A stretch of 15,399 nt of DNA from an uncultured Deinococcales bacterium (lineage in GTDB: Bacteria > Deinococcota > Deinococci > Deinococcales > JAAFIG01). The stretch is from positions 1-15,399 of the forward strand of contig CAXTTL010000116.1 of the NCBI GenBank assembly GCA_964247135.1, written 5' to 3'. Below the pieces are notes generated by a model that searched no databases, was not told the DNA's origin, and saw only the letters and a list, made by a program, of their open reading frames with translations. Shown here piece by piece: positions 3 to 15,308 of this stretch. The position numbers and the translations under genes were made by a program. Positions within the stretch are counted from its first letter, which is position 1. Each line of letters starts with the position of its first letter.

Positions 3-449
3 ATTGCCAGCAAACACAAAGGCGTGGTGTTAAACATTGCCACGACCTACGCCCAGTCTGGGTCGGGATACGTTGTGCCAAGCGCCGTTTCCAAAGCGGG
101 CGTGGTCGCCATGACCAAATCTTTAGCCGCAGAATGGGGCAAGTACGGCATTCGCCTGAACGCCATCGCGCCAGGACCGTTCCCAACCGAAGGCGCAATG
201 TCACGATTGATGCCGACACCAGAAATTGAAAAACTCTTCACAGATCGCATTCCCCTGCGACGGACCGGCGAGCACCTCGAGCTTTCCAACCTTGCCTCGT
301 ACCTCTTAAGCGATTTTGCGGGTTACATCACAGGCGATGTAATCACGATTGACGGCGGCGAAACCGCCTGGGGCGGCGGCGAGTTTAACGTGCTGGATGC
401 CGTGACAACCGAACAATGGGACATGCTCGAGGCAATGCGCAAAAAGTAA
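3..449 (+). CDS. SDR family oxidoreductase, 2,4-dienoyl-CoA reductase-like (5' end outside the window)
   Basis: The frame is open from the window edge (IASKHKGVVLNI...). SDR C-terminal motifs are present: SAVSKAGV, KSLAAEWGKYGIRLNAIAPGP, YITGDVITIDGG. The SxxxK without the usual Tyr is typical of DECR-like SDRs. Confidence 0.85.
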   Translation: MASKHKGVVLNIATTYAQSGSGYVVPSAVSKAGVVAMTKSLAAEWGKYGIRLNAIAPGPFPTEGAMSRLMPTPEIEKLFTDRIPLRRTGEHLELSNLASYLLSDFAGYITGDVITIDGGETAWGGGEFNVLDAVTTEQWDMLEAMRKK

Positions 450-458
450 AACTCGAGA

Positions 459-487
459 TTGATGCTCAGACATAAGTAGAGTAAATT
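459..487 (+). promoter_or_regulatory. Putative sigma-70 promoter, probably leaderless, for the 493-768/lysZ unit
   Basis: TTGATG (459-464), 17-bp spacer, TAAATT (482-487), then 5 nt to ATG 493. No Shine-Dalgarno sequence. Confidence 0.55.
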
Positions 488-492
488 GAATC

Positions 493-768
493 ATGACCAT
501 GATGATTCCAGCTTCAGATCAAGCAATGAAAATTTTAGACTCTTATCGGCGTTCACGACGTGTTTCTCGAGAACAAGCACTCGAGGAATTGTTAACTCGC
601 GCTGAAGAAACCATGTCTTTTGAAGCACAGGTTGAGAAAGTAAAAAGTCGGAATAAGGGTTTTAGCGGCTCAGAAATTCTCAAAGCAACTCAAAACGCCG
701 TTCAAGAAGTCAGAATTCCAAAAAGAGATTTGATTCTCGAGCATAAATTGTTAGAATCCAAAACGTGA
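493..768 (+). CDS. Small hypothetical protein, ribbon-helix-helix/CopG antitoxin-like
   Basis: AT-rich 91-aa ORF. An N-terminal strand plus two helices (SREQALEELL) and a C-terminal EILKATQNAVQEVR resemble RHH antitoxins. The stop overlaps the lysZ start (GTGA). Confidence 0.5.
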   Translation: MTMMIPASDQAMKILDSYRRSRRVSREQALEELLTRAEETMSFEAQVEKVKSRNKGFSGSEILKATQNAVQEVRIPKRDLILEHKLLESKT

Positions 769-1568
769 TTATTGTTAAAGTTGGCGGTTCGGACGGAATC
801 AATTACGACGCGGTTTGCAACGACATTGCAGACTTGTGGCTTTCGGGGCAGAAACTCATTTTGGTACATGGTGGCTCGAGCGAAACCAACCGCATTGCGG
901 AACTTTTGGGGCATCCGCCAAAGTTTGTCACCTCGCCTTCGGGGTACACGAGCCGTTTTACCGACCGTCAGACGCTCGAGATTTTTGAGATGGTCTACTG
1001 CGGCAAAATGAACAAAGGGCTGGTCGAACGCCTGCAAAAACGTGGTGTCAATGCCGTGGGTTTGTCGGGTTTGGATGGCAGGATTTTCGAGGGCAAGCAC
1101 AAGGATTCGGTGCGTGCGGTTGAAGATGGCAAGACCAAAATATTGCGTGGCGATCACACGGGAACAGTCGAAAAAGTCAACACGCATCTTTTAAACTTGT
1201 TGCTCGAAAACAATTATTTGCCTGTGCTCACCCCTCCTGGCTCGAGCTTTGAGGGCGTGGCGGTCAATGTGGACGGCGACCGGGCTTCGGCGGCGGTGGC
1301 GGTGGCAATGAAAGCCGAAGCGTTGTTGCTGCTTTCAAACGTGCCAGGGCTGCTGCGCAATTTCCCAGACGAATCGAGTTTAATTACGCAAATTCCGGCG
1401 CTCGATGTCGAGTCGTACCTCGAGTTTGCCCAAGACCGCATGAAGAAAAAAGTTCTTGGCGCAGCCGAAGCGGTGCAAGGTGGTTGTGGTCGTGTGATTT
1501 TTGGTGATGCGAGGCTCGAGAAACCAGTTACGGAAGCATTGGCAGGCAAAGGCACAGTCGTTTCCTAA
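765..1568 (+). CDS. lysZ: [LysW]-aminoadipate kinase (amino acid kinase family, ArgB-like)
   Basis: IIVKVGGS, LVHGGSSETN, HPPKFVTSPSGYTSRFTD, NVDGDRA and MKKKVLGA match Thermus/Deinococcus LysZ. Confidence 0.92.
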   Translation: MIIVKVGGSDGINYDAVCNDIADLWLSGQKLILVHGGSSETNRIAELLGHPPKFVTSPSGYTSRFTDRQTLEIFEMVYCGKMNKGLVERLQKRGVNAVGLSGLDGRIFEGKHKDSVRAVEDGKTKILRGDHTGTVEKVNTHLLNLLLENNYLPVLTPPGSSFEGVAVNVDGDRASAAVAVAMKAEALLLLSNVPGLLRNFPDESSLITQIPALDVESYLEFAQDRMKKKVLGAAEAVQGGCGRVIFGDARLEKPVTEALAGKGTVVS

Positions 1569-1616
1569 GCCGTTACGCAGATGCCCAAGTAACGCGAAAC
1601 GCATTAAGCTCGGGGC

Positions 1617-2507
1617 ATGAATTTTACAAGTCGAGATTTTGTCGGGATTGAAGACCTGCCGATCATCACCGCGTTTTTGGATGAGGCTCGAGAAATTGTT
1701 GGGCATGACCAGGGGATTTTTTTGCACGCTGGCGATGTCTGGTGGCGTTACGGGCAGAACGAACCTGAACTCCATTCTTTTCGCTTGTGGTTTCAAAACG
1801 AGAAGCTGATCGCTTTGGGTTGGGTCATGTTTAAATCTGACCTCGAGATTCAATTGCATCCCAATCTCGAGGAAGCCGTTTACGATACGGTGGCGCTCGA
1901 GATTGTGGATTGGGCGAAAACGGTTTGCACAGGCGTAATCTCTTCGGATAACGCCACCGAAAACACCAAACTGATTCATTTTTTCGAGTCATTTGGTTTT
2001 GAGACAGAGGGTGACAAAGGCTTCATGTTTGCCAAGGACCTGAGCGAATCCATTCCCGATCTCGAGCTTGCCTCAGGATTTCAGGCAAGGCATGTGCTCG
2101 ACTCAGAATTTGAGGAGCGGATCAATGTTCACCGTGATGCTTTTGATCCGTCTAAATTTACGTTGGTGCGTTACGCTCGGGTTCGTTCGATGCCAGGGTA
2201 CAACCCAGAGCTTGACTTGGTGGTTTCAACGCCAGAAAACGAATTTGCCTCCTTTTGCCTGATTTGGCTATCAGGCGGTGTGGGCTATTTTGAGCCTGTG
2301 GGAACTCGAGCGGCTTTCCGCAGGCAGGGGTTGGGTCGCGCGGTGATCCTCGAGGGTTTCAGACGATTACAGGCGCTAGGAGCGTACACGGCAATGGTGT
2401 ATTCGGGAACGAACAACCGCGAATTTTACGAATCGTGTGGTTTTGGGGTGGTGAACCGATTTGTGGGTTATTCCCTGAAACTCGAACGCACCATACTCGA
2501 GCCTTAA
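1617..2507 (+). CDS. GNAT family N-acetyltransferase (two-domain)
   Basis: C-terminal acetyl-CoA motif FEPVGTRAAFRRQGLGRA and FYESCGF. TAAGCT-N6-ATG upstream. Confidence 0.85.
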   Translation: MNFTSRDFVGIEDLPIITAFLDEAREIVGHDQGIFLHAGDVWWRYGQNEPELHSFRLWFQNEKLIALGWVMFKSDLEIQLHPNLEEAVYDTVALEIVDWAKTVCTGVISSDNATENTKLIHFFESFGFETEGDKGFMFAKDLSESIPDLELASGFQARHVLDSEFEERINVHRDAFDPSKFTLVRYARVRSMPGYNPELDLVVSTPENEFASFCLIWLSGGVGYFEPVGTRAAFRRQGLGRAVILEGFRRLQALGAYTAMVYSGTNNREFYESCGFGVVNRFVGYSLKLERTILEP

Positions 2508-2587
2508 AGTTAAACCAATTCAACTGCACAGCATCGTTCCAAAGCCCCTGGGTTCGTGATAATCTCGAGCATCCCAGGAGGTCATTC

Positions 2588-3430
2588 ATGTCTATTGCTG
2601 TGCTCACCGATTCAACTGCTGATATGACACCCGCCATGCAAGAGGCGCTCGGTGTCACCGTTGTGCCCTTGTACGTCAACTTTCAAAACCGTGTTTTAAA
2701 GGACAACCTCGAGATCAAAACCGACGAGGTTTTTGCGGGCATCAAAGCGGGTGCGGCAATGCCCAGCACCAGCCAGCCCACGCCCGCAGATTTTATGTCT
2801 GCTTACGAGAAACTCCTTCAAACACACGAAAAAGTGCTGAGCATTCACATCTCGAGCAAACTTTCTGGAACGGTCGCCAGCGCATCGCTTGCCGCCAAGG
2901 ATTTTGCAGGGCGGGTGGTGACCTTTGATTCTGAAGTCTCGAGCGGCAGCCAAAGCATGATGTGCGAACGGGCGGTCAGGCTCTTGAAGGCTGGCTCGAG
3001 TATCGAAGAGGTAGTGACCGTGCTCGAGCGGGTACGAAAAGTCACGAATTTGCGCTTTAGTGTCGGTTCGCTCGATTTTTTGAAGAAAAACGGTCGGATT
3101 GGCGGCGCTCAGGCTTTGATTGGTGGGTTGTTGAACATCAAACCTATTCTGCATTTGGTGGGCGGTAAAGTTGAGGCTGCCGGTCGGGTTCGTGGCTCCA
3201 AAGCGGCGCTCGAGGATGTGGTCAGCAATTTACGCGCCCTCCAAGCCAAACATGGTCGCGTCAGAACAGCCTACATTTACACCGACAAACAAGACGATGT
3301 CGAACCGCTCCGTGCCGCAGGAAAAGAAATGGGCGTCGAAGAGTTCAGCGTCACGCAAACGGGAACGGTCATTGCCAGCCACGTCGGACCTGGAACGTAT
3401 GGTGCACTCAGTGAACCCGTGGATGTCTGA
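2588..3430 (+). CDS. DegV family fatty-acid-binding protein (FakB-like)
   Basis: IAVLTDSTAD, STSQPTP, SIHISSKLSGT, LKKNGRIG, IKPIL and SHVGPG motifs. Start set at ATG 2588 after the AGGAGG SD rather than the ORF-track start at 2435. Confidence 0.92.
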   Translation: MSIAVLTDSTADMTPAMQEALGVTVVPLYVNFQNRVLKDNLEIKTDEVFAGIKAGAAMPSTSQPTPADFMSAYEKLLQTHEKVLSIHISSKLSGTVASASLAAKDFAGRVVTFDSEVSSGSQSMMCERAVRLLKAGSSIEEVVTVLERVRKVTNLRFSVGSLDFLKKNGRIGGAQALIGGLLNIKPILHLVGGKVEAAGRVRGSKAALEDVVSNLRALQAKHGRVRTAYIYTDKQDDVEPLRAAGKEMGVEEFSVTQTGTVIASHVGPGTYGALSEPVDV

Positions 3431-3773
3431 TCTCGAGGCATTGGTTTTTGAAGCCAATTTTGACCCTTGGGAATCGGTTTCAAGTATTCTCGAGCATTCC
3501 GGTGAACGTGCCGAACGCTTGAGGGCGCATATTCTCGAGACAAAATTGAAGTATTGGAATTTGATTTGCGGCACTTTAAACCTCGAGCCACCACCGGCGA
3601 CCTTGCTCGAGTTGATGCACTTTGAATGCAGGGTGACGGGTTTATTGAGCCTCGAGCAACGGATGGTAAAGCTCGAGTATTCTGGGCGGGAGTTAAGTGT
3701 TGCAGCTTTGATTCGGCTCTCGGCACGTCACAGCGTCTGGCACGCGGGTCAAATTGCACTGAGCAGATTTTAG
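3423..3773 (+). CDS. Short DinB/YfiT-like four-helix protein
   Basis: ATG 3423 overlaps the DegV end. N-terminal DPWES, HILETK..YW and C-terminal RHSVWHAGQI (HxxxHxGQI metal motif). 116 aa. Confidence 0.7.
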   Translation: MSDLEALVFEANFDPWESVSSILEHSGERAERLRAHILETKLKYWNLICGTLNLEPPPATLLELMHFECRVTGLLSLEQRMVKLEYSGRELSVAALIRLSARHSVWHAGQIALSRF

Positions 3774-3809
3774 GACACACGCCCTCTAAAAGCGTCGTAA
3801 AGTGCTGCT

Positions 3810-4349
3810 GTGATCGCTCGAGTCTTACTGACCCTTTTGTTTTTGCTTGCGCCGCTTTCTGTCGCGCAAGAAACCAATATTCCCGCCAAAATAACGCGTC
3901 AAGCCATCGTCAATTTTGATTATGACCCCGACGGTGGCAACATCGTCTTGCAGGTGCTTGATGCCAAAGGAACAGGAAAGTTTGCGGTCGATAAACTTGA
4001 AACCCGAGCCATCGGTGACGAGGGCGAAAACGGACGCACCATTCCTGCCAACCTCGCTCGCGTCAGTCCCTCGAGCTTCAAGGGCGAAATGGCGCTGAAT
4101 GAAGGGCAGTGGAACGTTCAGGTCAAACTCGAGGTTGGCAACCAGAAACTCGAGGGCAGTTACTTTTTGAACGTTGGCAAGTCTTCAAGCTCTGGCGTGA
4201 TTCCAATGGTTCCGCCCAACCCTGAAGTCGGCAGGATGGGACAGCTTGTCGGTTTGATGATCGGCGTTCCGATGGTTTTGGCATTGCTGGCGTTTTTTGT
4301 TGGAATCATTGCCAAGAATCGGGCGCAAGCTCGAGCCGAAGCGCTTTAA
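3810..4349 (+). CDS. Exported hypothetical protein with beta-rich domain and C-terminal TM anchor
   Basis: Signal peptide (LLTLLFLLAPLSVA-Q), beta-rich core with GQWNVQVKL (YtkA/FixH-like impression only), and a hydrophobic C-terminal helix followed by KNR. TAAAGT-N6-GTG upstream. Confidence 0.7.
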   Translation: MIARVLLTLLFLLAPLSVAQETNIPAKITRQAIVNFDYDPDGGNIVLQVLDAKGTGKFAVDKLETRAIGDEGENGRTIPANLARVSPSSFKGEMALNEGQWNVQVKLEVGNQKLEGSYFLNVGKSSSSGVIPMVPPNPEVGRMGQLVGLMIGVPMVLALLAFFVGIIAKNRAQARAEAL

Positions 4350-5677
4350 GGTGTAAAACAGACGGGTTGGCAGGCTGTGGATATCGCTCGGGACTCGAGG
4401 TCAAAACCAATCTCGAAAGACCGCAGCCACGGAAAGTAGGCGTCAACCAGGTTAAACCGAGTTGCCCCGAGCCGAAACGATTGCAATTGCGTTTGCAAAC
4501 CAGCCAGCAACTTTTGGCGCAAAAAGTCATTCGCAAAATTTTCCTCAAGTTGCCCCTGACGCAATTTTGGGCGCAGCAAACTCGAGTACAAATAATCGTT
4601 GACATAACCTCGAGCGAGCATGACTTTGGAGGCATCGGACGCGCCGTAAACCGCAAACATCGTTGCCTGAGCCAACGCGCTGCCGATGTTGTTGCCTGGC
4701 GTTCCCCAGGCGGCAAATCCTGCCAGATCGGCAAAACCGCCGGACGCCAGCAGGTCTTGAATCAATTTGGGGTTGGCTTGATTGACCGCGCCCACATCGG
4801 CGAGCGCCACCAGACCGCGACGTTGATCGGCATTGATCTCGAGTGCCGCACGACGCGGGTCGCCACCGTTAAAAACGTACAACTCAAGATTTGCTGCATC
4901 ACTCAACTCAAATCCGATGGCTTGGGCTTGATCGTGAACGCTTTGCACCAAAGTTTGACCTTCGTAGGCAGCAAACTGATTTTCGGCAGAGGCTGGATCG
5001 CTAAACTTGACCCGAAGTTTGGGGCGCAATTTCTGACGCTCGAGCATCAAACTGGCGGTTAAAGCACTGGCAACCTCATCTGCGCCAGGATGGACAAAAA
5101 CATTCTTCAACCCTCGAGCCTCGACCTCGTTGCGAATTGTTGCGCCCTCGAGTGGGGCGGGCGAACCTGGCAGCGCGTCGTCCCAGGTGACAAACAAACG
5201 CTGCAAGGTACCGTCCGCCGCCCAATCGAGCGAGCGTCGAATCACCTCGAGGTTGCGCTCACGATCCACGGCATCTGGCGCTCGAGGAATGACCACAAAG
5301 CCGTACACTGGACTCGACAGATGCCAAAACCACGCCGACCAGAGGTTGTCCCAGGCGACATCGGCGCCGATTTGACTGCTGCGAGATTGCACCAAACCGC
5401 CGTAAGCCAGAGCGTCCAAGGACACGATCACCGCCGAAGGTTGAAGCTCGTCAATCCAGGTGCGAATGGCTTGCGCATCGGCTGGCTTGGATGACGTACC
5501 GAGCATCTCGAGTGGCGGTGTGCGCATCTCGAGCTTGCCCATTGCGGCGATACCGACGGGAAGACTCGAGTTTGCGGGGCGCGAATCGAGCGGGATCAAG
5601 GCTATCGGATTCGAGAATGCAGTTTGAGCGAAGGCAACACACGAGAGAATAAAGAACAAGACGAAAATAATGCGCAC
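4346..5677 (-). CDS. DUF4127 family protein with signal peptide
   Basis: IPLDSRPAN, SLDALAYGGLVQSR, PGADEV and AAWGTPGNNIGSALAQ motifs, plus an N-terminal signal peptide. The stop shares TTAA (4346-4349) with the convergent gene. Confidence 0.8.
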   Translation of the reverse strand: MRIIFVLFFILSCVAFAQTAFSNPIALIPLDSRPANSSLPVGIAAMGKLEMRTPPLEMLGTSSKPADAQAIRTWIDELQPSAVIVSLDALAYGGLVQSRSSQIGADVAWDNLWSAWFWHLSSPVYGFVVIPRAPDAVDRERNLEVIRRSLDWAADGTLQRLFVTWDDALPGSPAPLEGATIRNEVEARGLKNVFVHPGADEVASALTASLMLERQKLRPKLRVKFSDPASAENQFAAYEGQTLVQSVHDQAQAIGFELSDAANLELYVFNGGDPRRAALEINADQRRGLVALADVGAVNQANPKLIQDLLASGGFADLAGFAAWGTPGNNIGSALAQATMFAVYGASDASKVMLARGYVNDYLYSSLLRPKLRQGQLEENFANDFLRQKLLAGLQTQLQSFRLGATRFNLVDAYFPWLRSFEIGFDLESRAISTACQPVCFTP

Positions 5678-5713
5678 ACCTTATTTTTGACAATGCAACA
5701 TGAGAATCCAAGT

Positions 5714-5760
5714 TTGACTTATCACTTGAGTATCAATTAGTATTCAGACCGAACGGTTTG
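5714..5760 (+). promoter_or_regulatory. Promoter and TetR operator of the tetR operon
   Basis: TTGACT (5714-5719), 18-bp spacer, TAGTAT (5738-5743), followed by the dyad CAGACCG-AA-CGGTTTG (5745-5760) across the predicted transcription start. Confidence 0.65.
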
Positions 5761-5763
5761 AAA

Positions 5764-6366
5764 ATGAAAAAAGGCGAACGCACCCGCGACCATATTCTGG
5801 CACAATCGGCAGCCGTGTTTAACCAACACGGTTACGCCGCCACCAGCATGTCGGACTTGATGCTGGCGACCAAACTCGAGAAGGGCGGGATTTACAACCA
5901 TTTTGCCAGCAAAGAACAACTTTCGCTGGAGGCATTCGATTATGCGGTGGCGCTGATCGAGCACCGTTACGAGGCGGCGCTCGAGAAACGCAATACCACC
6001 ATAGATCGACTGAGCGCCGTGATGGAGGTGTTCCTCGAGTTTATTCACGATCCTGTTTTGCCTGGGGGTTGTCCGGTCTTGAACGCGGCAATCGAAAGCG
6101 ACGACTCGAATGAGAACCTGCGCCAGCGAACAAAACTGGTCTTGACTGGTTGGAGAACCCGCATTCAAGGCATCATCGAAATGGGCATTGCAAGGGGCGA
6201 ATTGCAGGCTGGGACGGATGCCTCCAAACTGGCGACGGTCATGCTGGCGACGCTCGAGGGTGCGGTCATGATGTCAAAAGTTTGTCGTGACGCGACGCAC
6301 ATGCGCATGGCGGCAAGTTTTCTCGAGGATCATTTAAGGACACTGCTCGTCAGGGAGGTCGTCTAA
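5764..6366 (+). CDS. TetR/AcrR family transcriptional regulator (LmrA/YxaF/NemR-like)
   Basis: HTH region GYAATSMSDLM...KGGIYNHFASKEQL and C-terminal GGCPVLN and LEGAVMM motifs. Confidence 0.93.
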   Translation: MKKGERTRDHILAQSAAVFNQHGYAATSMSDLMLATKLEKGGIYNHFASKEQLSLEAFDYAVALIEHRYEAALEKRNTTIDRLSAVMEVFLEFIHDPVLPGGCPVLNAAIESDDSNENLRQRTKLVLTGWRTRIQGIIEMGIARGELQAGTDASKLATVMLATLEGAVMMSKVCRDATHMRMAASFLEDHLRTLLVREVV

Positions 6367-6367
6367 T

Positions 6368-6840
6368 ATGTACGCAAACATCGTGGCGGGCAATGTCAGG
6401 TCGTCGTGGCGGCAATTGAATCAGCGCAATCACTCGGGTTTGATCGCCCAATTTTCGCCCAATTTTAGGTACGAGTTCTTTGGGATTCATGCGCTCGGCG
6501 GCGTTCGCAGGAGCAAAAAAGCGATGGAGGAGTTTTTTACTCGGGTTTTCAACATTTTCCCAAATGCGCAGTTTGAAGTCAGTAACATTCTGGTCAAAGG
6601 AATGCCCTGGGACACAACGGTTGTGGCTTTGGTTAAGATCAATGCAATGCTCGAGAATGGGCAACCCTATCAAAATCAAATCAGCATCAAAATCAAATCA
6701 GCCAAACCATTCGCATTCGTTGGGGGCAAATCGTCGAGATTTTAACGCTCGAGGACACGCAAAAATTGGTGCAAGCATTGCAAATTCAACTTGAGGCTGG
6801 GATTCTTGAAGCTGGTGCGGCGCCAATTGCGGACGAATAA
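6368..6840 (+). pseudogene. SnoaL/NTF2-like protein frameshifted by a 17-bp tandem duplication
   Basis: The N-terminus reads FFGIHALGGVR...VKGMPWDT. ATCAAAATCAAATCAGC is duplicated at 6669-6702. Removing one copy gives a 151-aa ORF ending ...ISQTIRIRWGQIVEILTLEDTQKLVQALQIQLEAGILEAGAAPIADE* at TAA 6838-6840. Confidence 0.85.
6669..6702 (+). repeat. Perfect 17-bp tandem duplication
   Basis: ATCAAAATCAAATCAGC at 6669-6685 and again at 6686-6702. Confidence 0.95.
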
Positions 6841-6854
6841 AACCGAATGGTCTG
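6839..6854. promoter_or_regulatory. Second TetR-type operator-like dyad
   Basis: AAAACCG-AA-TGGTCTG resembles the 5745-5760 box and lies just upstream of the paaI-like RBS. Confidence 0.5.
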
Positions 6855-6866
6855 AAAAAGGAAACC

Positions 6867-8068: not shown

Positions 8069-8463
8069 TGCAAATGATGACGGAAAACGAAACCCTGATC
8101 AAAACACTCGAGATCGAGGTGCTCGAGGCGAGTTCTGAAAAAGTCGTGGCGACCATGCCCGTACAACCCAAAGTCCATCAACCTTTTGGTTTGCTGCACG
8201 GCGGCGCAAGTGTTGCCCTGGCTGAAACCGTTGCCAGCGTCGGCGCATTTCTGAGTGTCGCCGATCAAGGCATGTTGGCGGTTGGACTTGAAATCAATGC
8301 CAACCATTTGCGCGGCGTGCGCGACGGCATCGTGACCGCCACCGCGACACCGATTCACAAGGGACGCACCACCCAGGTTTGGCAAGTCGAGATCAAAGAC
8401 GCGAACGGCAAGATGGTCTGCGTCTCGAGGTGCACGCTGGCGATTGTTCCAGGGTCAAAATGA
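8065..8463 (+). CDS. Hotdog-fold thioesterase, MenI/YdiI (1,4-dihydroxy-2-naphthoyl-CoA hydrolase)-like
   Basis: HQPFGLLHGGASVALAET, GLEINANH and HKGRTTQVW motifs. GGAGG at 8053-8057 and an ATGA overlap support the start at 8065. Confidence 0.9.
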   Translation: MMQMMTENETLIKTLEIEVLEASSEKVVATMPVQPKVHQPFGLLHGGASVALAETVASVGAFLSVADQGMLAVGLEINANHLRGVRDGIVTATATPIHKGRTTQVWQVEIKDANGKMVCVSRCTLAIVPGSK

Positions 8464-9134
8464 ACACGAAGATCATTCCCATTCCAACGAATACCGCCAA
8501 CTCGTATTTTTTGGTCGACGAACGGTTGGTCTTGGTGGATTCTGGCAGTCCTGGCAACGAAAAACGCATTCTGGAAACCCTAGAGCGGCATCAACTTCAA
8601 CTCAAAGACTTGAGTTTGATTCTGCTCACCCACGGACATTGGGATCATCTGGGCAGCGCCGAAGCCATTCGCGCCGTCAGTAAAGCACCAATAGCGCTAC
8701 ACCATGCCGACCTCGAGCTTGCCAAAGCGGGTCGTGCCAAACTCAAACCTTACGGCTTTGGTACAGCTTTACTCGAGCCTTACTTTAGTTCCAAACGATT
8801 CAATCCTTTGACACCAAACGTGATTTTACGCGGCAGCGAAACGCTCGAGGCTTACGGTGTGAACGCCAGATTGCTCGAGACGCCAGGGCACACCAACGGT
8901 TCGGTTTCGGTCTTGCTCGAGTCTGGCGATGCGATCATCGGCGATGTGTTGCGCGGCGATTTTGTCTTGGAAAACAGTCCAAACTGGCATTTTTTTTATG
9001 ATGATCTGAAAATGGTGCGCTCGAGTATCAAGAAATTGCTGAACTCAAAACCCGAGCGATTGTTCGTGGGTCACGGCAAGCCGTTCTCGTTTCAAAGTTT
9101 GCAAAACCGTTTTTCTGGCAAGGTCAACGCATGA
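8460..9134 (+). CDS. Metallo-beta-lactamase fold hydrolase
   Basis: LVDSG, THGHWDHLG, TPGHTNGS, GD and GHG motifs. ATGA overlap at 8460-8463. Confidence 0.92.
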   Translation: MNTKIIPIPTNTANSYFLVDERLVLVDSGSPGNEKRILETLERHQLQLKDLSLILLTHGHWDHLGSAEAIRAVSKAPIALHHADLELAKAGRAKLKPYGFGTALLEPYFSSKRFNPLTPNVILRGSETLEAYGVNARLLETPGHTNGSVSVLLESGDAIIGDVLRGDFVLENSPNWHFFYDDLKMVRSSIKKLLNSKPERLFVGHGKPFSFQSLQNRFSGKVNA

Positions 9135-9808
9135 AAGTTCCCGCACCACGCATTATTGTTGCCAGCGACCTGGAAGGCACGCTGACCACGGGCGAAACCT
9201 GGAAGGGCATTGCCAGATACCTCGAGCGCAACGGAAAATCTCGAGCCTACCGAAATTTTTTCAACGCCAGGTTCCCTGCTGCTTTGCTGGCAAGGGCTGG
9301 ATTGAATCGGCGAGAATTTCAAAACCGTTGGATCACCGATTTGCTGGGCTTGTTTGGTGGCACGTATTACGGCGAATTTCTGGCGGCGGCAGAGTGGGTG
9401 GTCGAGCACGAACTCTGGGACAACCGCCGCAAAAACGTGCTGGCGGTACTCGAGACCTGCAAATCTGAGGGCGCTAGGGTAATTCTGGCATCGGGAACGT
9501 ATCAGCCGGTGCTTGAGGTTTTTGCCAAACGGTGCAGCCCAAACTTGGGCGGTTTTGAGGTAATCGGCACCAAACTCGAGATGATTACGGGCAAACTGAC
9601 GGGCAAGATTTCTGGCGAGGTCAACGTCGGCAAGGTCAAAGCCGCGAGCTTGAAAGCCGCCATTTTATCAGAACCGCTCGAGGCAGCCTTTGGTGACACC
9701 ATGCCAGACCTTCCGATGCTCGAGATGGCACGAAACCCAGTGGTGATTCCGACCGAACCCAAACTCGAGCGACTGGCACTCAAACGCGGTTGGCAGATTA
9801 TTCGATAA
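9131..9808 (+). CDS. HAD-IB family hydrolase (phosphoserine phosphatase-like)
   Basis: Motif I SDLEGTLT, motif II ILASG, a conserved Lys, and motif IV AFGDTMPDLPML. Confidence 0.88.
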   Translation: MKVPAPRIIVASDLEGTLTTGETWKGIARYLERNGKSRAYRNFFNARFPAALLARAGLNRREFQNRWITDLLGLFGGTYYGEFLAAAEWVVEHELWDNRRKNVLAVLETCKSEGARVILASGTYQPVLEVFAKRCSPNLGGFEVIGTKLEMITGKLTGKISGEVNVGKVKAASLKAAILSEPLEAAFGDTMPDLPMLEMARNPVVIPTEPKLERLALKRGWQIIR

Positions 9809-9870
9809 GCCTTCACAAAAGCGTGACCTGACTGGGAATTGCAAGCTCGAGTCTCGCGTATACTGATGGC

Positions 9871-10512
9871 ATGAAAACGATTCTTGCCTTTTTCGTTGCT
9901 TTGATGTTTGTCGCGTGCAGCAGCGTAGACACTGAGAACTTGAAGAAAGAAAATAGCGATCTCAAGACCCAACTCGAGACGGTCACCAAAGAACGTGACG
10001 CCTTAAAAGTTCAGCTAGACGGCATCAAAGCCGTGCTCGAGAATGCGACAGGTGGCACGGGCACCACAACCCCCAACCCGAGCGCCACAACGCCAGCCGC
10101 GCCAGATTCGAGCATGGATTCAGGCAACTCGAGCGCTGGTTCAAGCACTCCTTCAACCACTCCTTCAACCACTACTGCACCCAGCAGTACCCCCTCGAGC
10201 GACGGCTCAAACGCAACGACACCAGATTCAAGTCCAGCGCCAACCACTCCAGATTCAAGCTCGAGTGCCAGCACCAAACCCAGTTCAGCCGTCGAAATGT
10301 ACGCCAAAGCGGTGCTCGAGACGGCGCAAAAGTACAATTCCGAAACCCAACAAACCCCGCCGACTGACTGCTCGAGCGGTTACACCGCTGGAACCCACGC
10401 CGTTCCCTCGAGCGACGCGGTGCAATCGTGCCGGGTGGATCGGCTGGACAATGGTTTCAAAATCACTTTAAAAGATGCCAACGGCGCCGTGACGACTTAC
10501 CCAACCCCATGA
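9871..10512 (+). CDS. Lipoprotein with coiled coil, Ser/Thr/Pro-rich stalk and C-terminal two-Cys domain
   Basis: Lipobox FVA-C (Cys16), heptad coiled coil, long S/T/P low-complexity linker and C-terminal globular domain. TATACT-N6-ATG upstream. Confidence 0.8.
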   Translation: MKTILAFFVALMFVACSSVDTENLKKENSDLKTQLETVTKERDALKVQLDGIKAVLENATGGTGTTTPNPSATTPAAPDSSMDSGNSSAGSSTPSTTPSTTTAPSSTPSSDGSNATTPDSSPAPTTPDSSSSASTKPSSAVEMYAKAVLETAQKYNSETQQTPPTDCSSGYTAGTHAVPSSDAVQSCRVDRLDNGFKITLKDANGAVTTYPTP

Positions 10513-11213
10513 ACCGCCAAATCATTGCGTTGGGTGGCGGTGGATTTTCGATGGAACCTGAAAATCCGTTTCTCGATCAGTACATTTTAAACGCCAGCAG
10601 CCTCGAGAGACCAAAAGTTTGTTTTGTACCGACCGCCAGCGGCGACAGCGCGGGTTATGTTGAGCGTTTTTACAGCGCCTTCAACAAACTCGAATGCGAA
10701 CCGAGCCATTTGACGCTGTTCAACCCTCACACTTGGACAGAAGCCCTCGAGCTTTTTTTAGAAAAACAGCACGTGCTGTATTTTGGGGGCGGCAACACCA
10801 AAAACGCCCTGGCATTGTGGCGCGAATGGAATCTCGAGCCTCTGCTGCGAAACGCCTACGAGCGTGGCGCGGTGCTGGCTGGACTTTCGGCGGGTGCAAT
10901 TTGCTGGTTTGAACAGGGCAGTACCGACAGCATCGGGCGCGAACTTGGGGTGCTCGAGTGCCTGGGCTGGTTGAAGGGTTCGATGACCCCACATTACGAC
11001 GGTGAGGCAAACCGTCGCCCAAAATTACATCAATTTTTACTCGAGCGAAAAATTCAAAATGGTTTTGCCGCCGATGACGGCGCGGCGCTTCACTTTGTGG
11101 ACGAAAAGCTCGAGCATGTCGTCGGTTCCAGACCGAACGCTCGAGCCTACAGCGTCAAACTCGAGGCTGGAAATGTGGTCGAAACACCGCTCGAGACACG
11201 GTATTTGGGTTGA
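10509..11213 (+). CDS. Peptidase E (family S51, class I GATase-like)
   Basis: IIALGGGGFS, FVPTASGD, GGGNT, GLSAGAICW and PHY motifs. ATGA overlap at 10509. Confidence 0.92.
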   Translation: MNRQIIALGGGGFSMEPENPFLDQYILNASSLERPKVCFVPTASGDSAGYVERFYSAFNKLECEPSHLTLFNPHTWTEALELFLEKQHVLYFGGGNTKNALALWREWNLEPLLRNAYERGAVLAGLSAGAICWFEQGSTDSIGRELGVLECLGWLKGSMTPHYDGEANRRPKLHQFLLERKIQNGFAADDGAALHFVDEKLEHVVGSRPNARAYSVKLEAGNVVETPLETRYLG

Positions 11214-11332
11214 AGATACGGGTCAGGCTCGAGTTCGCGTCTCAAAGTGGTCAAGCAAAAAACCTCAAGCAGCGTTCAGGGCTGTGGACAAAGCCTACCC
11301 ACCTTCCTGCTGGATTGATTTTACCCGACGAA

Positions 11333-11902
11333 TCACCAACGCTCGAGGAAGCCTACGGTTCTTTCCAGAATCAAGGCTGTCGCAGCGGCATCGTATTCAC
11401 TGAGGCTGGAGTCGGCAATCAAGTGACCGGTCCCAGGGTAGAGGTACAGCTCGCCGCCCGGAACGGTATCTGCCAAATCCTGCGTGACTTCGATATCCTC
11501 TTCGCTCCACGGGTCATTTTGCGTGAAGTGCATTTGCAACGCGACATTGGATGACCATGAGGGTGAAAATTCGGAAACTGGCACAACCCCATGATACAGG
11601 ATGGCTCCAAGCGCCCCAGATCGCGTCTGGGCGAGTTTTTGTGCCGGAACCGCCCCGAGCGAAAAGCCCGCGTAGACGATGTTTGATGGCAGGTTAGCCG
11701 CTGCCGCTTCGCCTCGAGCCGTGATCTCGCCGAAACCGATGGATTTGGCATGAGCGACACCTGCTTCAATGGATGTAAACGTGGCTCCCTCAAAAAGGTC
11801 GGGGACGGTCACGCGATGTCCGGCGCGGCGAATTTCGTCGGCAAAGGCAAGAACACCGTCGGTCAACCCTTGGGCGTGGTGAAACAGGATCAGTTCGGTC
11901 AT
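11333..11902 (-). CDS. Dienelactone hydrolase family alpha/beta hydrolase (Ser nucleophile)
   Basis: LFHHAQGLT, PDLFEG, GFSLG, DPW and YPGTGHLIAD motifs. GGAG upstream on the minus strand. Confidence 0.88.
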   Translation of the reverse strand: MTELILFHHAQGLTDGVLAFADEIRRAGHRVTVPDLFEGATFTSIEAGVAHAKSIGFGEITARGEAAAANLPSNIVYAGFSLGAVPAQKLAQTRSGALGAILYHGVVPVSEFSPSWSSNVALQMHFTQNDPWSEEDIEVTQDLADTVPGGELYLYPGTGHLIADSSLSEYDAAATALILERTVGFLERW

Positions 11903-12142
11903 GGTCAGTTCTCCATTGCTGAGTGGGTAGGCAGCCGCACCCTAGGGTTGGTTCAATCGACAGTTTAAATCTGTTCCTGCAAGAATTCAACAGTTCATTT
12001 TAGGTTAAAACCCATCAACCAAATTCAATCCTCGTCTCGAGCCGTCACCTTCTCTCGAGCACGTTCACGATCTTCCATCACCTGGTTCGCCTCCGACATC
12101 GGCGGCTCGAGTTCGGGAGAATCAAAAGGTCTGAATTCTGGC

Positions 12143-12511
12143 TCAATCGATATGGTGCGCCAACACTTTTTCGTAATAATCAATCTTGTACTCAACGTGC
12201 TCGAGGTTGTGTTGTAAAGACTTTAAGTGCTCGATCACCTCGAGACGGTGGGCTTTGAGAATTTCGATGCGCTTGGGAATGTTGCTCGAGTCTTGTTGCA
12301 CCAACCTGGCAAATTCGCGCATGGTTCGGATTGGCATCCCCGTTTCTCGCAGGCAGGTTAAAATGCCAATCCATTCCAGGTCGCCCTCCGAGTAGCGCCG
12401 ATGCCCATTTTGGCTGCGTTCAACCTGCAACAAGCCCTCGCGTTCGTAGTAATGCAGGGTGTGAATACTGATTCCGGCTTGGCTGGCGGCGTCGCTGATC
12501 GAGTGGGTCAT
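12143..12511 (-). CDS. MerR family transcriptional regulator (AdhR-like)
   Basis: TLHYYEREGLL, NGHRRYSE, CLRETGMPI and KIDYY motifs. Confidence 0.93.
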   Translation of the reverse strand: MTHSISDAASQAGISIHTLHYYEREGLLQVERSQNGHRRYSEGDLEWIGILTCLRETGMPIRTMREFARLVQQDSSNIPKRIEILKAHRLEVIEHLKSLQHNLEHVEYKIDYYEKVLAHHID

Positions 12512-12517
12512 GTACCC

Positions 12518-12583
12518 AGTTTAAAACCTCGAGTGTGCTTTAGGTCTAGCGCTTGACCTCGAGTGCGCTAAAGGTATTAGGCT
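12518..12583. promoter_or_regulatory. Back-to-back MerR-type promoters with 19-bp spacers and two operator dyads
   Basis: Plus strand: TTGACC (12553-12558), N19, TAGGCT (12578-12583), N7, ATG. Minus strand: TAGACC (12548-12543), N19, TAAACT (12523-12518), N6, ATG. Dyads are ACCTCGAGTGTGCTTTAGGT (12526-12545) and ACCTCGAGTGCGCTAAAGGT (12556-12575). Confidence 0.8.
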
Positions 12584-12590
12584 CCGGTTC

Positions 12591-13568
12591 ATGAAAAGGA
12601 ATCTTGGTCGGAGCAACATCGGCATCAGCGCCATCGGGATGGGCTGCTGGGCTATCGGCGGCGAGTGGAATTTTGATACCCAAGCCGCCGGTTGGGGACC
12701 GGTCAACGACCTCGAGTCCATCGCCGCGATTCATGCGGCAGTTGAATTGGGAGTCACCTTTTTCGATACCGCCGCAAACTACGGCGCTGGACACAGCGAA
12801 GTCATTCTGGGAAAAGCACTTGAGGCAAACCGCGCCAAGGTTGTCATCGCCACAAAATTTGGTTACGGCGTCGATGAAGCCAAAAAAGTCGTTAGCGGTG
12901 TCTATTGCAGCCCTAAGGATATTCGATCATCGTGTACCGCCAGCCTGAGGCGTTTGCAAACCGATTACATTGATCTGTTTCAGTTGCATGTTGGCAATTA
13001 CCCCATCACCGATGCGCATGAAGTCCGCGACACCCTCGAGCGACTGGTTCAAGAAGGTTTGATCCGATCTTACGGTTGGAGTACCGACGACACCGCCCGA
13101 GCCGAAGTGTTTGCCAGCGGCACAAACTGTGTGGCGATTCAGCATCAAGAAAATATTTTTGAAGACAACGGCGCCATGCTCGAATTGATGGAACGCCATC
13201 AGCTCTCGAGCATCAACCGAGGTCCGCTCGGCATGGGCATTTTGACGGGTAAATTTTCGCAGGGCGCGAGCTTTGAGGACAGCGATGTGCGTCATGTTTC
13301 GCCCGAATGGATGGCGTACTTCAAAAATGGTCAACCCAACGCCGACTGGCTCGCCAAACTCGAGGGTATCCGCGAAATTCTGTGTGCCGGTGGACGCACC
13401 CTGGCGCAGGGGGCTTTGGCGTGGTTGCTGGCTCGGAGCGATCAAACCATTCCAATTCCAGGTTTTAGAACCGTCAAACAGGTTCAAGAAAATGCGGCTG
13501 TGCTCGAGCAGGGTGCGTTAAACCAGTCGCAAATGCAAGAAATTGCGGTGTTGTTACAAGACAAATAG
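12591..13568 (+). CDS. Aldo/keto reductase
   Basis: IGMGCWAIGG, FFDTAANYGAGHSE, IATKFG, SLRRLQTDYIDLFQLH and IPIPGF motifs. Confidence 0.95.
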   Translation: MKRNLGRSNIGISAIGMGCWAIGGEWNFDTQAAGWGPVNDLESIAAIHAAVELGVTFFDTAANYGAGHSEVILGKALEANRAKVVIATKFGYGVDEAKKVVSGVYCSPKDIRSSCTASLRRLQTDYIDLFQLHVGNYPITDAHEVRDTLERLVQEGLIRSYGWSTDDTARAEVFASGTNCVAIQHQENIFEDNGAMLELMERHQLSSINRGPLGMGILTGKFSQGASFEDSDVRHVSPEWMAYFKNGQPNADWLAKLEGIREILCAGGRTLAQGALAWLLARSDQTIPIPGFRTVKQVQENAAVLEQGALNQSQMQEIAVLLQDK

Positions 13569-13669
13569 CCGATCACAAATTTCAGGGTGCGAGTGATCTC
13601 GAGAGTAAGCCTTGATCGAGAAGGTCAAACTCCGACCCTCGGGATTCGCTCGCCCGTTATACTCTGCTG

Positions 13670-15148
13670 ATGCTCGCCAAAGGATTTGCCGCCACCATCA
13701 TCGGAGTCAACGCCACCATCGTCGAGGTCGAGGTGGACGTGTCGGCAGGAATGCCCATGTTCATGGTCGTCGGATTGGCAGACACCGCCGTTCAGGAAGC
13801 CAGGGAACGCATTCGCGCCGCCATCAAAAATTCTGGTTTGCCGTTTCCTTCAGGCTCGAGGATCACCGCCAACCTCGCACCCGCCGACGTGCGCAAGGAA
13901 GGCTCGAGTTTTGATTTGCCGATGGCGCTCGGGATTCTGGCAACCCAGGGTGAAGTGCCGCTCGAGGTTTTAGACAAAATGCTCTGCGCCGGAGAACTGG
14001 CGCTGGACGGCACGATTCGTCCGATCAATGGCGCGATCAACATTGCCCTCGCCGCCGCGCAAAACGGTTACAAAGCCGTGATGCTGCCGATTGACAATGC
14101 CACCGAAGCCGCCGTGATCGAAGGCATCGAAGTTTTCTGCCCGAGCAACCTCAAACAAGCCGTGCGCCATTTGAACGGACAAGAGAAACTCGAGCCAAGC
14201 AAACCTGTGGTGCTCGAGCCTGACCCCGATACGCTGCTCGATTTGGCGGACATCAAAGGGCAGATGCAGGGCAAACGGGCGCTCGAGATCAGCATTGCGG
14301 GGCATCATAATTTGCTTTTGATTGGACCGCCTGGGTCGGGCAAAACCATGCTCGCGCGGCGTGCCGTGGGACTTTTACCGTTGCTGTCTGACCGTGAGGC
14401 ATTGGACGTGACCCGCATTCACTCGAGCGCCGGAAGACAACCCAAAGGACTGGTTCGAGTCGCGCCATTTCGTGCCCCTCACGCCACAATCTCGGATGCT
14501 GGACTGATTGGCGGGGGATCAATTCCCAAACCTGGCGAGGTCAGTTTGGCGCATCACGGAATTTTATTTCTGGATGAATTTCCAGAATTCTCGAGGGACG
14601 CGCTCGAGGCTTTGCGCCAGCCACTCGAAGACCGCGAAGTAACCATTTCTCGCGCTCGAGCCAGCGTGACCTTTCCCGCAGGTTTTCAACTGATCGCCGC
14701 CATGAATCCAAGCCCCAGCGGCGAATGGATGGACGCCTCGAACCCCGCGCAACGGCGCTACCTGGCAAAACTTTCAGGACCCCTGCTTGACCGCATCGAC
14801 CTGGTGGTGAACGTGCAAAAGCTTTCGCCCGACGAACTGACCCGAGCGCCCGAAGGTGAAAGCACCCAAGAAGTACGAACCCGTGTTTTAAAGGCTCGAG
14901 CCACCATGCAAGCCCGTCAAGGCACCGCCAACGCGCATTTGATCGGCAAGGCTTTAAGGCAACACGCCAAACTCGAGCTTGGACCTGAAAACTTCATGCG
15001 AGCCGCCGCCAAACAACTCAACCTTTCAGGACGGGGTTTTGACCGTGTGCTTCGCGTGGCAAGAACCATCGCAGACTTGGCTGGTGTTGAACAAATCCTC
15101 GAGACGCACATTGCCGAAGCCGTCAGTTACCGTCAACGCGATTGGTGA
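13670..15148 (+). CDS. comM: YifB/ComM family Mg-chelatase-like AAA+ ATPase
   Basis: [38 protein letters not shown], Walker [27 protein letters not shown] and ARTIADL motifs. TATACT-N6-ATG upstream. Confidence 0.93.
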
Positions 15149-15252
15149 TGTGTTCAACCTCGAGTTTAATGGGCAAACAGATACAGCTTTCAACCAAAAT
15201 AAAACTGTGCCTCGAGCCAAGCACAATGCTCGAGACACCCTGGTTTGAGGTG

Positions 15253-15281
15253 TTGCACTTTCAATATTTTCGTGTTACATT
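15253..15281 (+). promoter_or_regulatory. Putative tRNA promoter
   Basis: TTGCAC (15253-15258), 17-bp spacer, TACATT (15276-15281), with an extended TG at 15273-15274. Confidence 0.6.
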
Positions 15282-15308
15282 TCTCGAGCAGATTCGTGCG
15301 TACCGTAT

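Follow-up and report, generated by a model that had tools for sequence, protein, structure and literature searches.

How a six-base palindrome, CTCGAG, comes to be present in 133 exact copies is the question raised by the 15,399-nt stretch of DNA analysed here (the window), which belongs to an uncultured Deinococcales bacterium. In 200 dinucleotide-preserving shuffles of the window the word occurred 3.52 times on average and at most 10 times, with 0/200 reaching 133, an excess of 38-fold relative to the shuffles and of 35-fold relative to the simple expectation of 15399/4096. A first-pass annotation had counted about 133 copies by hand, which exact matching returns as exactly 133 at the same positions, and had suggested a HIP1-like genome-marking system linked to DNA methyltransferases. 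We are highly confident in reading CTCGAG as a highly iterated palindrome belonging to one uncultured Deinococcales family, and not as a mobile repeat, a by-product of codon usage or an artefact. A literature search found no published report of this CTCGAG hyper-abundance.

Results

By the gene calls, 74 of the window copies read CTC-GAG, 12 read xCT-CGA-G and 20 read xxC-TCG-AGx, and 27 lie outside called genes. The phases first annotated for the copies at 276, 975, 3817, 4330, 875, 10128, 10194 and 10260 agree with these calls; the one at 566 sits in a 92-codon ORF left out of the present gene calls. The 14 copies first described as intergenic are all (14/14) outside gene calls, and the 13 further copies there are in stretches with uncertain small ORFs.

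Table 1. Features of the window that bear on the distribution of CTCGAG.
Feature	Position	Strand	Basis or remark
Dispersed CTCGAG palindromes (133)	276..15288	.	One per 116 bases; exact matching
CTC-GAG (Leu-Glu), the most frequent phase, example	276..281	+	Phase from gene calls
xxC-TCG-AGx (Ser-Ser or Ser-Arg), example	875..880	+	Phase from gene calls
xCT-CGA-G (Arg by CGA), example	3817..3822	+	Phase from gene calls
Left 12-base direct repeat GGCTCGAGTTCG of 878-base gene cassette	11226..11237	+	Same-genus comparison
Self-complementary pair, two intergenic CTCGAG 18 bases apart	12036..12059	.	Exact matching
Right 12-base direct repeat GGCTCGAGTTCG of 878-base gene cassette	12104..12115	+	Same-genus comparison
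Two CTCGAG within the divergent control region of a putative MerR-like regulator gene	12528..12563	.	MerR from sequence reading
ComM-type gene with 13 CTCGAG	13670..15148	+	7/13 copies where the protein departs from named Deinococcus/Meiothermus orthologues
Four intergenic CTCGAG, ComM-type gene on one side, tRNA gene on the other	15159..15288	.	Exact matching

The genome from which the window comes is a metagenome bin, fragmented into 386 contigs and 84% complete, and CTCGAG is its top-ranked hexamer, with 33,925 copies in 5.09 Mb (6.7 per kb), 24.7-fold above the base-composition expectation. Every one of the 297 contigs longer than 5 kb carries it, at 2.6-10.5 per kb, and 4-kb windows hold 26.6 copies on average (sd 6.9), with at least 5 in each of 3,721 windows. 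The first-pass view that the flanks vary and that the unit is the 6-mer is essentially right: there is a mild preference for G at -1 and C at +1 (39% each), composition is otherwise near background, no extended consensus is found genome-wide, and the commonest 10-mer context accounts for 478 of the 33,925 copies. A dispersed repeat of the REP or MITE type was rejected on the same grounds, the flanks being near background with no extended unit past the core.

Genome-wide, the word is in excess in all frames and most strongly between genes. In coding DNA the excess is 7.1-fold after a synonymous-codon shuffle and 16.6-fold after a codon-order shuffle; intergenic DNA, at about 45% GC, has 9.4 copies per kb, which is above the coding density, 43- to 48-fold over expectation and 71- to 81-fold over models trained with CTCGAG masked. 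Intergenic copies set 18-20 bases apart, as in the self-complementary pair of the window, number 64 genome-wide, against 42.7 expected. Of the coding copies 64% are in the Leu-Glu frame, and the other two frames are 11- and 17-fold enriched over the synonymous shuffle. Throughout the genome 12,683 of 16,058 Leu-Glu pairs (79%) are encoded by CTCGAG, against 824 (5%) expected from the usage of CTC and GAG outside Leu-Glu contexts, and Ser-Ser is written TCGAGC 2,924 times against 446 expected. The rarity of CGA remarked on in the first pass holds, in that this codon makes up 82% of Arg codons in xCT-Arg-Gxx and 10-12% where the preceding codon does not end in CT. A DNA-level process, as first suspected, is therefore required, since codon or dipeptide usage is insufficient.

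The suspicion that the motif may also shape protein sequence is borne out both by the over-use of Leu-Glu, which is the most over-used dipeptide (amino-acid-level observed/expected 2.35, compared with 1.02 for Glu-Leu), and by replacements in the ComM-type gene. In an alignment with seven full-length orthologues, 6/7 share the Leu-Glu pair at 14282 and 7/7 the one at 14603. In place of the Leu-Glu pairs at 13961, 14189, 14213, 14972 and 15098, and of the Ser-Ser pairs at 13903 and 14422, the two orthologues from named Deinococcus have other residues; the Meiothermus orthologue shares Leu-Glu at 13961.

In a comparison of five same-genus genomes the conserved share is 65-76% for CTCGAG sites and 30-37% for background hexamers, so that the former are kept about twice as well, and third codon positions are 84.0% identical inside the word and 65.5% outside it. 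Sites are often gained and often lost: across a trio of genomes, all three share 53, two share 54, and 28 occur in one only. The 878-base gene cassette is missing from the same-genus genomes G004 and G005, where the empty site has one CTCGAG. Direct repeats of CTCGAG bound four to five of 16 indels between same-genus genomes, a suggestive but small excess relative to the approximately 11% expected of all 6-base direct repeats by a rough density estimate.

All 19 genomes of the family (19/19, GC 46-62%) have 4.3-6.8 CTCGAG per kb, and the remaining 132 genomes of the order have at most 3.4 per kb. A single-contig 5.1-Mb genome is among the 18 other family assemblies with the same density, and a named Deinococcales bin from an independent deposit (L122) has 6.96 per kb. 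Meiothermus and several further genera have a weaker form, which lies mainly in the Leu-Glu frame; in eight genomes of this kind (G128, G116, G030, G070, G025, G126, G059 and G147) CTCGAG encodes 41-81% of Leu-Glu pairs, against 4-33% expected, and the excess is almost confined to that frame. A Deinococcus-like genus avoids the word. Conjugative coupling-protein loci of the family genomes contain, when pooled, 194 copies where 239 are expected, or 0.81 of the genomic density. The family also shows heavy avoidance of palindromes that differs between species, which is a mark of intense restriction-modification traffic.

Discussion

CTCGAG is a HIP-type word outside the cyanobacteria, in Deinococcales. 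The nearest known system is that of cyanobacteria, with HIP1 (GCGATCGC) and alternate HIPs (Elhai 2015, PMC4390886; Xu et al. 2018, PMC5861425), and we group the Deinococcales word with these because it is palindromic, hyper-abundant, present in all frames, conserved and lineage-wide. If over-representation of a palindrome by at least about 15-fold genome-wide is taken to define a HIP, CTCGAG exceeds this; as with HIPs, it is a GC-rich palindrome that is hyper-abundant across genome and lineage, it is found in coding and non-coding DNA and is conserved above background, and its host genome avoids many other palindromes. However, it is a 6-mer in Deinococcales rather than an 8-mer in cyanobacteria as HIP1 is, and it reaches about 6.7 per kb where HIPs are put at roughly 1 per kb in PMC4390886. 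It also departs from HIPs in encoding 79% of one dipeptide and in showing no long-range periodicity beyond the codon period of 3, and a search of five Pfam families in five family genomes found no conserved candidate for a cognate methyltransferase. The HIP1-like half of the first-pass proposal thus stands (the word is palindromic, 25-fold in excess, in all frames, conserved and lineage-wide), but marking by a methyltransferase is not supported. Neither outcome that the first pass had named as refuting its proposal was observed.

The uptake sequences USS of Pasteurellaceae and DUS of Neisseriaceae are non-palindromic words of 9-12 bases, at about 1 per kb, with a demonstrated uptake bias, and are thought to accumulate through drive tied to DNA exchange. 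CTCGAG resembles them as a short word spread over the genes and spacers of an entire clade, altering peptides and often paired downstream of genes, although it is a palindromic 6-mer, at 6.7 per kb, with no extended consensus.

Most probably the word is both created and maintained by a fixation bias that acts directionally on the DNA word as such, whether through selection for CTCGAG or through biased conversion; selection and biased conversion are indistinguishable with present data. Such a bias would lift CTCGAG 43- to 80-fold in unconstrained DNA, which we infer to be a scaled advantage of roughly 4 (ln 3.8-4.4), would drive synonymous choice near saturation, and would pull variable protein positions to Leu-Glu and Ser-Ser. 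It would cover all lineage-resident DNA, conjugative genes included, and a weaker bias would operate in other Deinococcales genera such as Meiothermus. By analogy, we suggest tentatively, as the leading candidate for its source, a CTCGAG-reading step by which self DNA is recognised during DNA exchange, in either uptake or recombination. Kin DNA with CTCGAG would be favoured at this step, and allele replacement would then propagate the word as a molecular drive; neither a very-short-patch repair couple nor a conserved methyltransferase would be needed. Natural transformability is established in Thermus and Deinococcus, and this, the restriction-modification traffic and the indels at CTCGAG repeats provide indirect support for DNA exchange. 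The copies in conjugative genes may be explained at least as easily by an intracellular process, or by defence that spares word-rich DNA. A role for HIP1 in uptake, similar to the exchange proposed here, has been put forward in a recent paper, and an effect of HIP1 in transformation is reported in the abstract of bioRxiv 10.1101/2024.09.10.611283.

An origin linked to methylation, on the lines of the HIP1 model of Elhai, we consider rather unlikely. A CTCGAG-specific methyltransferase would mark the word, and methylation-dependent repair, or selection for strand discrimination or a self mark, would then convert near-matches or protect it. A cognate methyltransferase accompanies each cyanobacterial HIP (PMC4390886), and each family genome examined encodes several DNA methyltransferases whose specificity is unreadable from sequence, with ten candidates in the genome of the window; one specificity could be common to different enzymes, and a D12 methyltransferase is present at 60-71% identity in 8/18 genomes of the family and in one outgroup genome that is partly enriched. 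However, among five family genomes that are 91-94% complete there is no common methyltransferase orthologue in PF01555, PF00145, PF02384, PF07669 or PF02086: the single-contig genome G011 is without a PF01555 match and G008 without one to PF00145, and the matches to PF02384 and PF07669 are non-orthologous type I-like or fused enzymes. The two D12-class groups occur in just 8/18 and 6/18 family genomes, and of the methyltransferases in the genome of the window, five have a sporadic distribution in relatives. Neither the XhoI nuclease family (PF04555) nor Vsr (PF03852) is found in the family (0/19 each). Variants with one mismatch show no depletion, observed/expected being 1.30 for the T-variant CTTGAG and 1.65 for TTCGAG, and C-to-T changes at the CpG cytosine are not in excess. 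The methyltransferase and repair link drawn in the first pass is therefore unsupported, and judged from gene content and variant counts a link between CTCGAG and methylation appears weakened. We also note that methylation and DNA exchange may not be alternatives, because the reported effect of HIP1 in transformation depends on methylation.

Two related systems were rejected. In E. coli a modest excess of CCWGG arises via Dcm/Vsr very-short-patch repair, and a repair bias enriching a methylase target would likewise work in all frames, but the CTCGAG enrichment is far greater, Vsr was found in none of the 19 family genomes and the T-variants are undepleted. XhoI restriction-modification recognises the same word, but avoidance is what marks a restriction target, and the Deinococcus-like genus shows it for CTCGAG, whereas the family is enriched for the word and the nuclease was found in none of its 19 genomes. 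In G021, a relative that is not a member of the family, a gene for an XhoI-family nuclease lies about 80 bases away from a PF01555 methylase match.

It is improbable, in our estimation, that the copies are selected sites of an abundant, lineage-conserved nucleoid-associated or repair protein serving chromosome organisation or break repair. Binding sites of this sort would need no methyltransferase, and they are consistent with the uniform density over 4-kb windows and with spacing that is slightly evener than random (5th-percentile gap 21, against 7.7), with pairs fewer than 12 bases apart depleted even in intergenic DNA. However, period 3 is the only periodicity, with neither a helical 10-11 base nor a long-range period, and no binding protein emerged as a candidate. 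The short-range depletion could also be explained otherwise, either by hairpins from close pairs or because tandem CTCGAGCTCGAG creates GAGCTC, of which the genome has 0 copies. Chi-like end protection is unlikely, and a Chi-like recombination hotspot was rejected, since RecC (PF04257) is found in 0/151 genomes and the palindrome has no orientation.

That CTCGAG merely follows from favoured CTC and GAG codons and a common Leu-Glu pair, with no DNA-level process, fits the predominance of the Leu-Glu frame and the high-GC relatives (g15 and the Thermus-like g9), where CTCGAG and the reversed GAGCTC have similar counts as codon usage alone would give, but is refuted for this family by the intergenic density, the choice of codons for Leu-Glu, the enrichment of the other frames over synonymous shuffles and the favouring of CGA where it completes the word. 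An assembly, binning or library artefact, such as linker sequence, has equally negligible standing, for although the bin is fragmented and k-mer binning could pick word-rich contigs, copies lie in frame within conserved genes at orthologous positions in five other genomes, and the density recurs in 18 other assemblies, the single-contig genome included, and in the independent bin.

Returning to a fixation bias on the word itself, a more specific and doubtful reading is that CTCGAG would be a self tag of the whole family that is encoded in sequence rather than in methylation, the bare hexamer being read by a conserved DNA-processing machine; candidate readers would be uptake, recombination, or a defence that leaves word-rich DNA alone. 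If this is true, drive would have rewritten about 4% of the bases of the genome (33,925 x 6 of 5.09 Mb), together with most of the codon pairs for Leu-Glu and many positions in proteins. This force would also be at work, more weakly, in cultured Meiothermus, and the decades-old HIP problem would become testable in a second phylum.

Results

Exactly 133 copies of CTCGAG are present in the window, in agreement with the hand count of the first-pass annotation, whereas 200 dinucleotide-preserving shuffles average 3.52 copies and reach 10 at most. As had been claimed, the copies use all three codon phases (74 CTC-GAG, 12 xCT-CGA-G and 20 xxC-TCG-AGx by our own gene calls), and all 14 positions described as intergenic fall beyond called genes, as do 27 window copies in all. 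The genome from which the window derives (G000; 5.09 Mb in 386 contigs, 84% complete, the window being contig C116) contains 33,925 copies, or 6.66 per kb, which places CTCGAG above all other hexamers and 24.7-fold over base composition. Its density is 2.6–10.5 per kb on every contig longer than 5 kb (n = 297), with at least five copies in each of 3,721 4-kb windows. The flanking bases show little preference beyond 39% G at -1 and 39% C at +1, which identifies the 6-mer as the unit, as proposed, and not a longer repeat. TCGA lying outside CTCGAG occurs 20,685 times against about 19,800 expected from our own composition estimate, and thus is itself neither enriched nor avoided. A maximal-order Markov model is uninformative here, as the sub-words of CTCGAG are themselves dominated by it. 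The copies are spaced slightly more evenly than random (the 5th percentile of gaps is 21, versus 7.7 under a geometric distribution), with period 3 as the only periodicity; intergenic pairs are depleted at distances below 12 only, and are enriched 1.5-fold at 18–20.

Codon usage does not account for the excess. High-confidence coding DNA (3.0 Mb, called with our own crude ORF caller and with the first fifth of every ORF removed) contains 19,862 copies, whereas a synonymous-codon shuffle that keeps the protein and per-gene codon counts predicts 2,803 (observed/expected, O/E, 7.1) and a codon-order shuffle predicts 1,198 (O/E 16.6). These two shuffles replaced the dicodon-preserving shuffle proposed at first pass, which is unsuitable because it retains CTC-GAG pairs by construction. 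Spacers of 20–300 bases (219 kb, about 45% GC) have 2,056 copies, and at 9.4 per kb are denser than genes; the intergenic excess over models of order 0 and order 1 is 43- to 48-fold, rising to 71- to 81-fold when the word is masked in model training. Density is highest in convergent spacers (10.5 per kb), followed by tandem (9.0) and divergent (8.0) ones, and is flat along the length of genes.

The consequences for proteins are substantial. CTCGAG encodes 12,683 of 16,058 Leu-Glu pairs (79%), compared to 824 predicted from codon usage outside the context, and no dipeptide is more over-used than Leu-Glu (O/E 2.35, with Ser-Ser at 1.63 and Glu-Leu at 1.02). CGA makes up 82% of Arg codons between xCT and Gxx, but 10–12% where the preceding codon does not end in CT. 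For the 13 copies in the ComM-type gene of the window, the comparison set was eight other sequences, of which seven span the full length. Two of the CTCGAG Leu-Glu pairs are kept in six and seven of the seven full-length orthologues and therefore have only been recoded; seven other copies (five Leu-Glu and two Ser-Ser) lie where named Deinococcus orthologues have different residues, so that CTCGAG alters proteins at variable positions. At one of these seven, window position 13961, the Meiothermus orthologue likewise has Leu-Glu.

We counted CTCGAG in 151 genomes of the order Deinococcales. All 19 genomes of the uncultured family containing the window (five genera; 46–62% GC in samples) have 4.3–6.8 copies per kb, and every other genome has 3.4 or fewer. 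Genus g13 is intermediate (1.4–3.0 per kb), as are genera g22, g24, g11, g31, g21 and g36; one g13 member has a gene identical to that of a Meiothermus sp. record. In samples of intermediate genomes CTCGAG encodes 41–81% of Leu-Glu pairs, versus 4–33% expected, and nearly all copies are in the Leu-Glu frame (e.g. 63/5/10 and 59/1/3 by phase), whereas the family uses all frames. A Thermus-like genome has no excess (19% of Leu-Glu pairs versus 32% expected), and the 35 genomes of the Deinococcus-like genus g7 (0.01–0.27 per kb) and two Deinococcus sp. records show avoidance. A database record named 'MAG: Deinococcales bacterium' has 6.96 copies per kb. The trait thus varies by degrees within the order and reaches its extreme in a single uncultured family. 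We also note that in the first 20-kb sample of G022, from the Thermus-like genus g9 (L034), all 20 TCGA sites lie within CTCGAG, and TCGA seems to be avoided there save inside this word.

Other palindromes behave quite differently. About half of the palindromic hexamers of G000 (34 of 64) are strongly avoided, with O/E below 0.2, and GAGCTC (0 copies), GGGCCC (1), CGGCCG (3) and CGTACG (5) are particularly scarce. The absence of GAGCTC belongs to a general avoidance of GRGCYC, since GGGCTC (4 copies) and GAGCCC (6) are also near-absent, and for the same reason the tandem CTCGAGCTCGAG never occurs. This avoidance fits a restriction target rather than a mirror effect of CTCGAG, and points to a restriction specificity in the lineage's past, presumably of the BanII type. 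Four family genera yielded enough sequence for testing when samples were pooled; all four share the avoidance, with between 17 of 32 and 34 of 64 testable palindromes below 0.2, compared to between 1 and 10 of 56 in other families. Whole-genome counts within the family range from 3 to 578 for CGTACG (about 200-fold) and from 9 to 629 for GCATGC (about 70-fold), and palindrome avoidance thus varies between species, as expected of changing restriction systems, whereas the CTCGAG excess is constant.

In five genomes of the same genus, with 80–82% identity to the window, 65–76% of window copies are intact, against 30–37% of background hexamers. With the five pooled, third codon positions are 84.0% identical within CTCGAG and 65.5% outside it, and unassigned DNA is 88.1% and 76.6% identical respectively. 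Among G000 and its congeners G004 and G005, 53 sites are present in all three, 54 in two and 28 in one, with G000 having apparently lost 15 and gained 12, so that turnover is brisk and close to balance. One-mismatch variants show a mild excess, greatest for transitions (O/E 1.3–1.7), and none is depleted, which is how decay products of a large CTCGAG pool would look. Gains of several bases at once, which could indicate templated writing, were set aside, the well-polarised cases being too few.

Same-genus alignments (about 108 kb) contain 16 distinct indels. In four or five of these, CTCGAG flanks the additional segment as a direct repeat and the shorter allele retains one CTCGAG; the 878-base cassette of the window is an example, with G004 and G005 lacking it and retaining one CTCGAG. 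By our own rough estimate about 11% of indels would be so flanked if any 6-base repeat serves, and the excess is suggestive only. Foreign DNA free of CTCGAG was considered and rejected, as the lowest 4-kb windows retain 5–8 copies. CTCGAG is sparsest (about 1.9 per kb) in a region of contig C75 that encodes conjugative transfer functions, and another low-density region, on contig C78, encodes a sugar-use operon. At homologous coupling-protein loci of six other family genomes, density is 0.48–1.45 of that of the same genome (0.81 pooled), which is near genomic; the force therefore acts on resident mobile DNA too, and the comparison fails to separate the mechanisms. At least 120 stretches of viral contigs contain three close copies; among the matches listed most are on contigs of 58–70% GC, where codon usage may explain them, and those with a family-like look are short pieces only. 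Among public sequencing runs only two matched, each a contig set with a small share of the words searched for.

Coordinates of features in the window and in related sequences.
Feature	Location	Strand	Description
Lipoprotein-like ORF	window 9871-10512		Linker rich in Ser/Thr/Pro; CTCGAG at 10128, 10194 and 10260 comes from repeated Asp-Ser-Ser (GAC TCG AGC)
878-base cassette	window 11226-12115	minus (gene)	189-codon gene; 12-base direct repeat GGCTCGAGTTCG on both sides
MerR-like regulator gene (label from reading the sequence), then divergent control region	window 12143-12590		Control region has two similar 20-base boxes that start ACCTCGAGTG and end AGGT
CTCGAG-bounded indels (three or four)	G000:C84, C14, C160 and C126 vs L016, L115, L017 and L118 (same genus)		115, 140, 599 and perhaps 440 bases
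Least dense region	G000:C75:10390-17938		Coupling protein, TraG-like ATPase
Low-density regions, about 4 kb each	G000:C238:2000-6000; C237:1-4000		42–44% GC; no caller-passing ORF and no Rfam match
D12-class adenine methyltransferase copy	G000:C320:2119-2988		81% identity to that of G011; in-frame TGA; may be a pseudogene
XhoI-family nuclease match	G021:C1:73699-77256 (L108)		Outgroup; PF01555 methylase match about 80 bases away

The link to a DNA methyltransferase raised at first pass is not supported, as no orthologue is common to five family genomes (G005, G011, G009, G008 and G007, 91–94% complete) across five Pfam families. In the single-contig genome G011 PF01555 is without a match, as is PF00145 in G008; PF02384 and PF07669 recover only enzymes that are not orthologous, either type I-like or large and fused; and two promising orthologous groups of PF02086 (the D12 class) were rejected, being present in just 8 and 6 of 18 family genomes. 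G000 itself encodes ten candidates; five were traced in relatives and discarded as sporadic, none being conserved in the family, and the tracing leaves aside a 391-aa C5 enzyme, a 798-aa HsdM-like protein, two MmeI-like proteins and a 1,499-aa SNF2 fusion. Neither the XhoI nuclease family nor Vsr has a match in the 19 family genomes, and RecC has none in the 151 genomes of the order. The sole XhoI-family match is in the outgroup G021, which despite this gene has 1.7 CTCGAG per kb.

Discussion

We have described here a lineage-wide, DNA-level directional force that favours the bare hexamer CTCGAG, and whose size we infer to be about e^4 in unconstrained DNA. As to its source, we tentatively put first a drive arising from self-recognition in DNA exchange, by analogy with DNA uptake sequences (USS/DUS). 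Such a drive would agree with recent proposals that the cyanobacterial palindrome HIP1 has a part in DNA uptake (PMC13756078, in which HIP1 was profiled phylogenetically against gene families, and bioRxiv 10.1101/2024.09.10.611283).

A methylation-linked process ranks second and is somewhat less probable. Methyltransferases of other families, or different enzymes sharing a specificity, are possible causes, but the negative enzyme census does not support a conserved cognate methyltransferase, a very-short-patch system or a RecBCD-type Chi reader. Selected protein-binding sites come third and seem unlikely. What probability remains we assign to a source not yet conceived.

In cyanobacteria, highly iterated palindromes (HIPs) have resisted explanation for some thirty years. 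The CTCGAG case is independent, occurs in another phylum and is about six-fold denser, and it differs from the cyanobacterial HIPs in that no conserved cognate methyltransferase was found in the five-genome census and in having graded weaker forms in cultured relatives. We found no published report of CTCGAG over-representation in Deinococcota in a search that covered literature other than subscription journals and supplements, and the main text of Elhai 2015 (PMC4390886) mentions neither CTCGAG nor Deinococcus. A second, independent case offers a comparative handle on the cyanobacterial problem, and any account of both must do without features restricted to cyanobacteria.

At the bench, XhoI would cut this DNA about every 150 bases. 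More broadly, the case illustrates the reach of a DNA-level force over coding, with one codon pair providing so large a share of a dipeptide. The proteome is measurably shifted by CTCGAG, and this bears on codon models, gene finding and metagenome binning, as well as on the inference of horizontal transfer in the clade.
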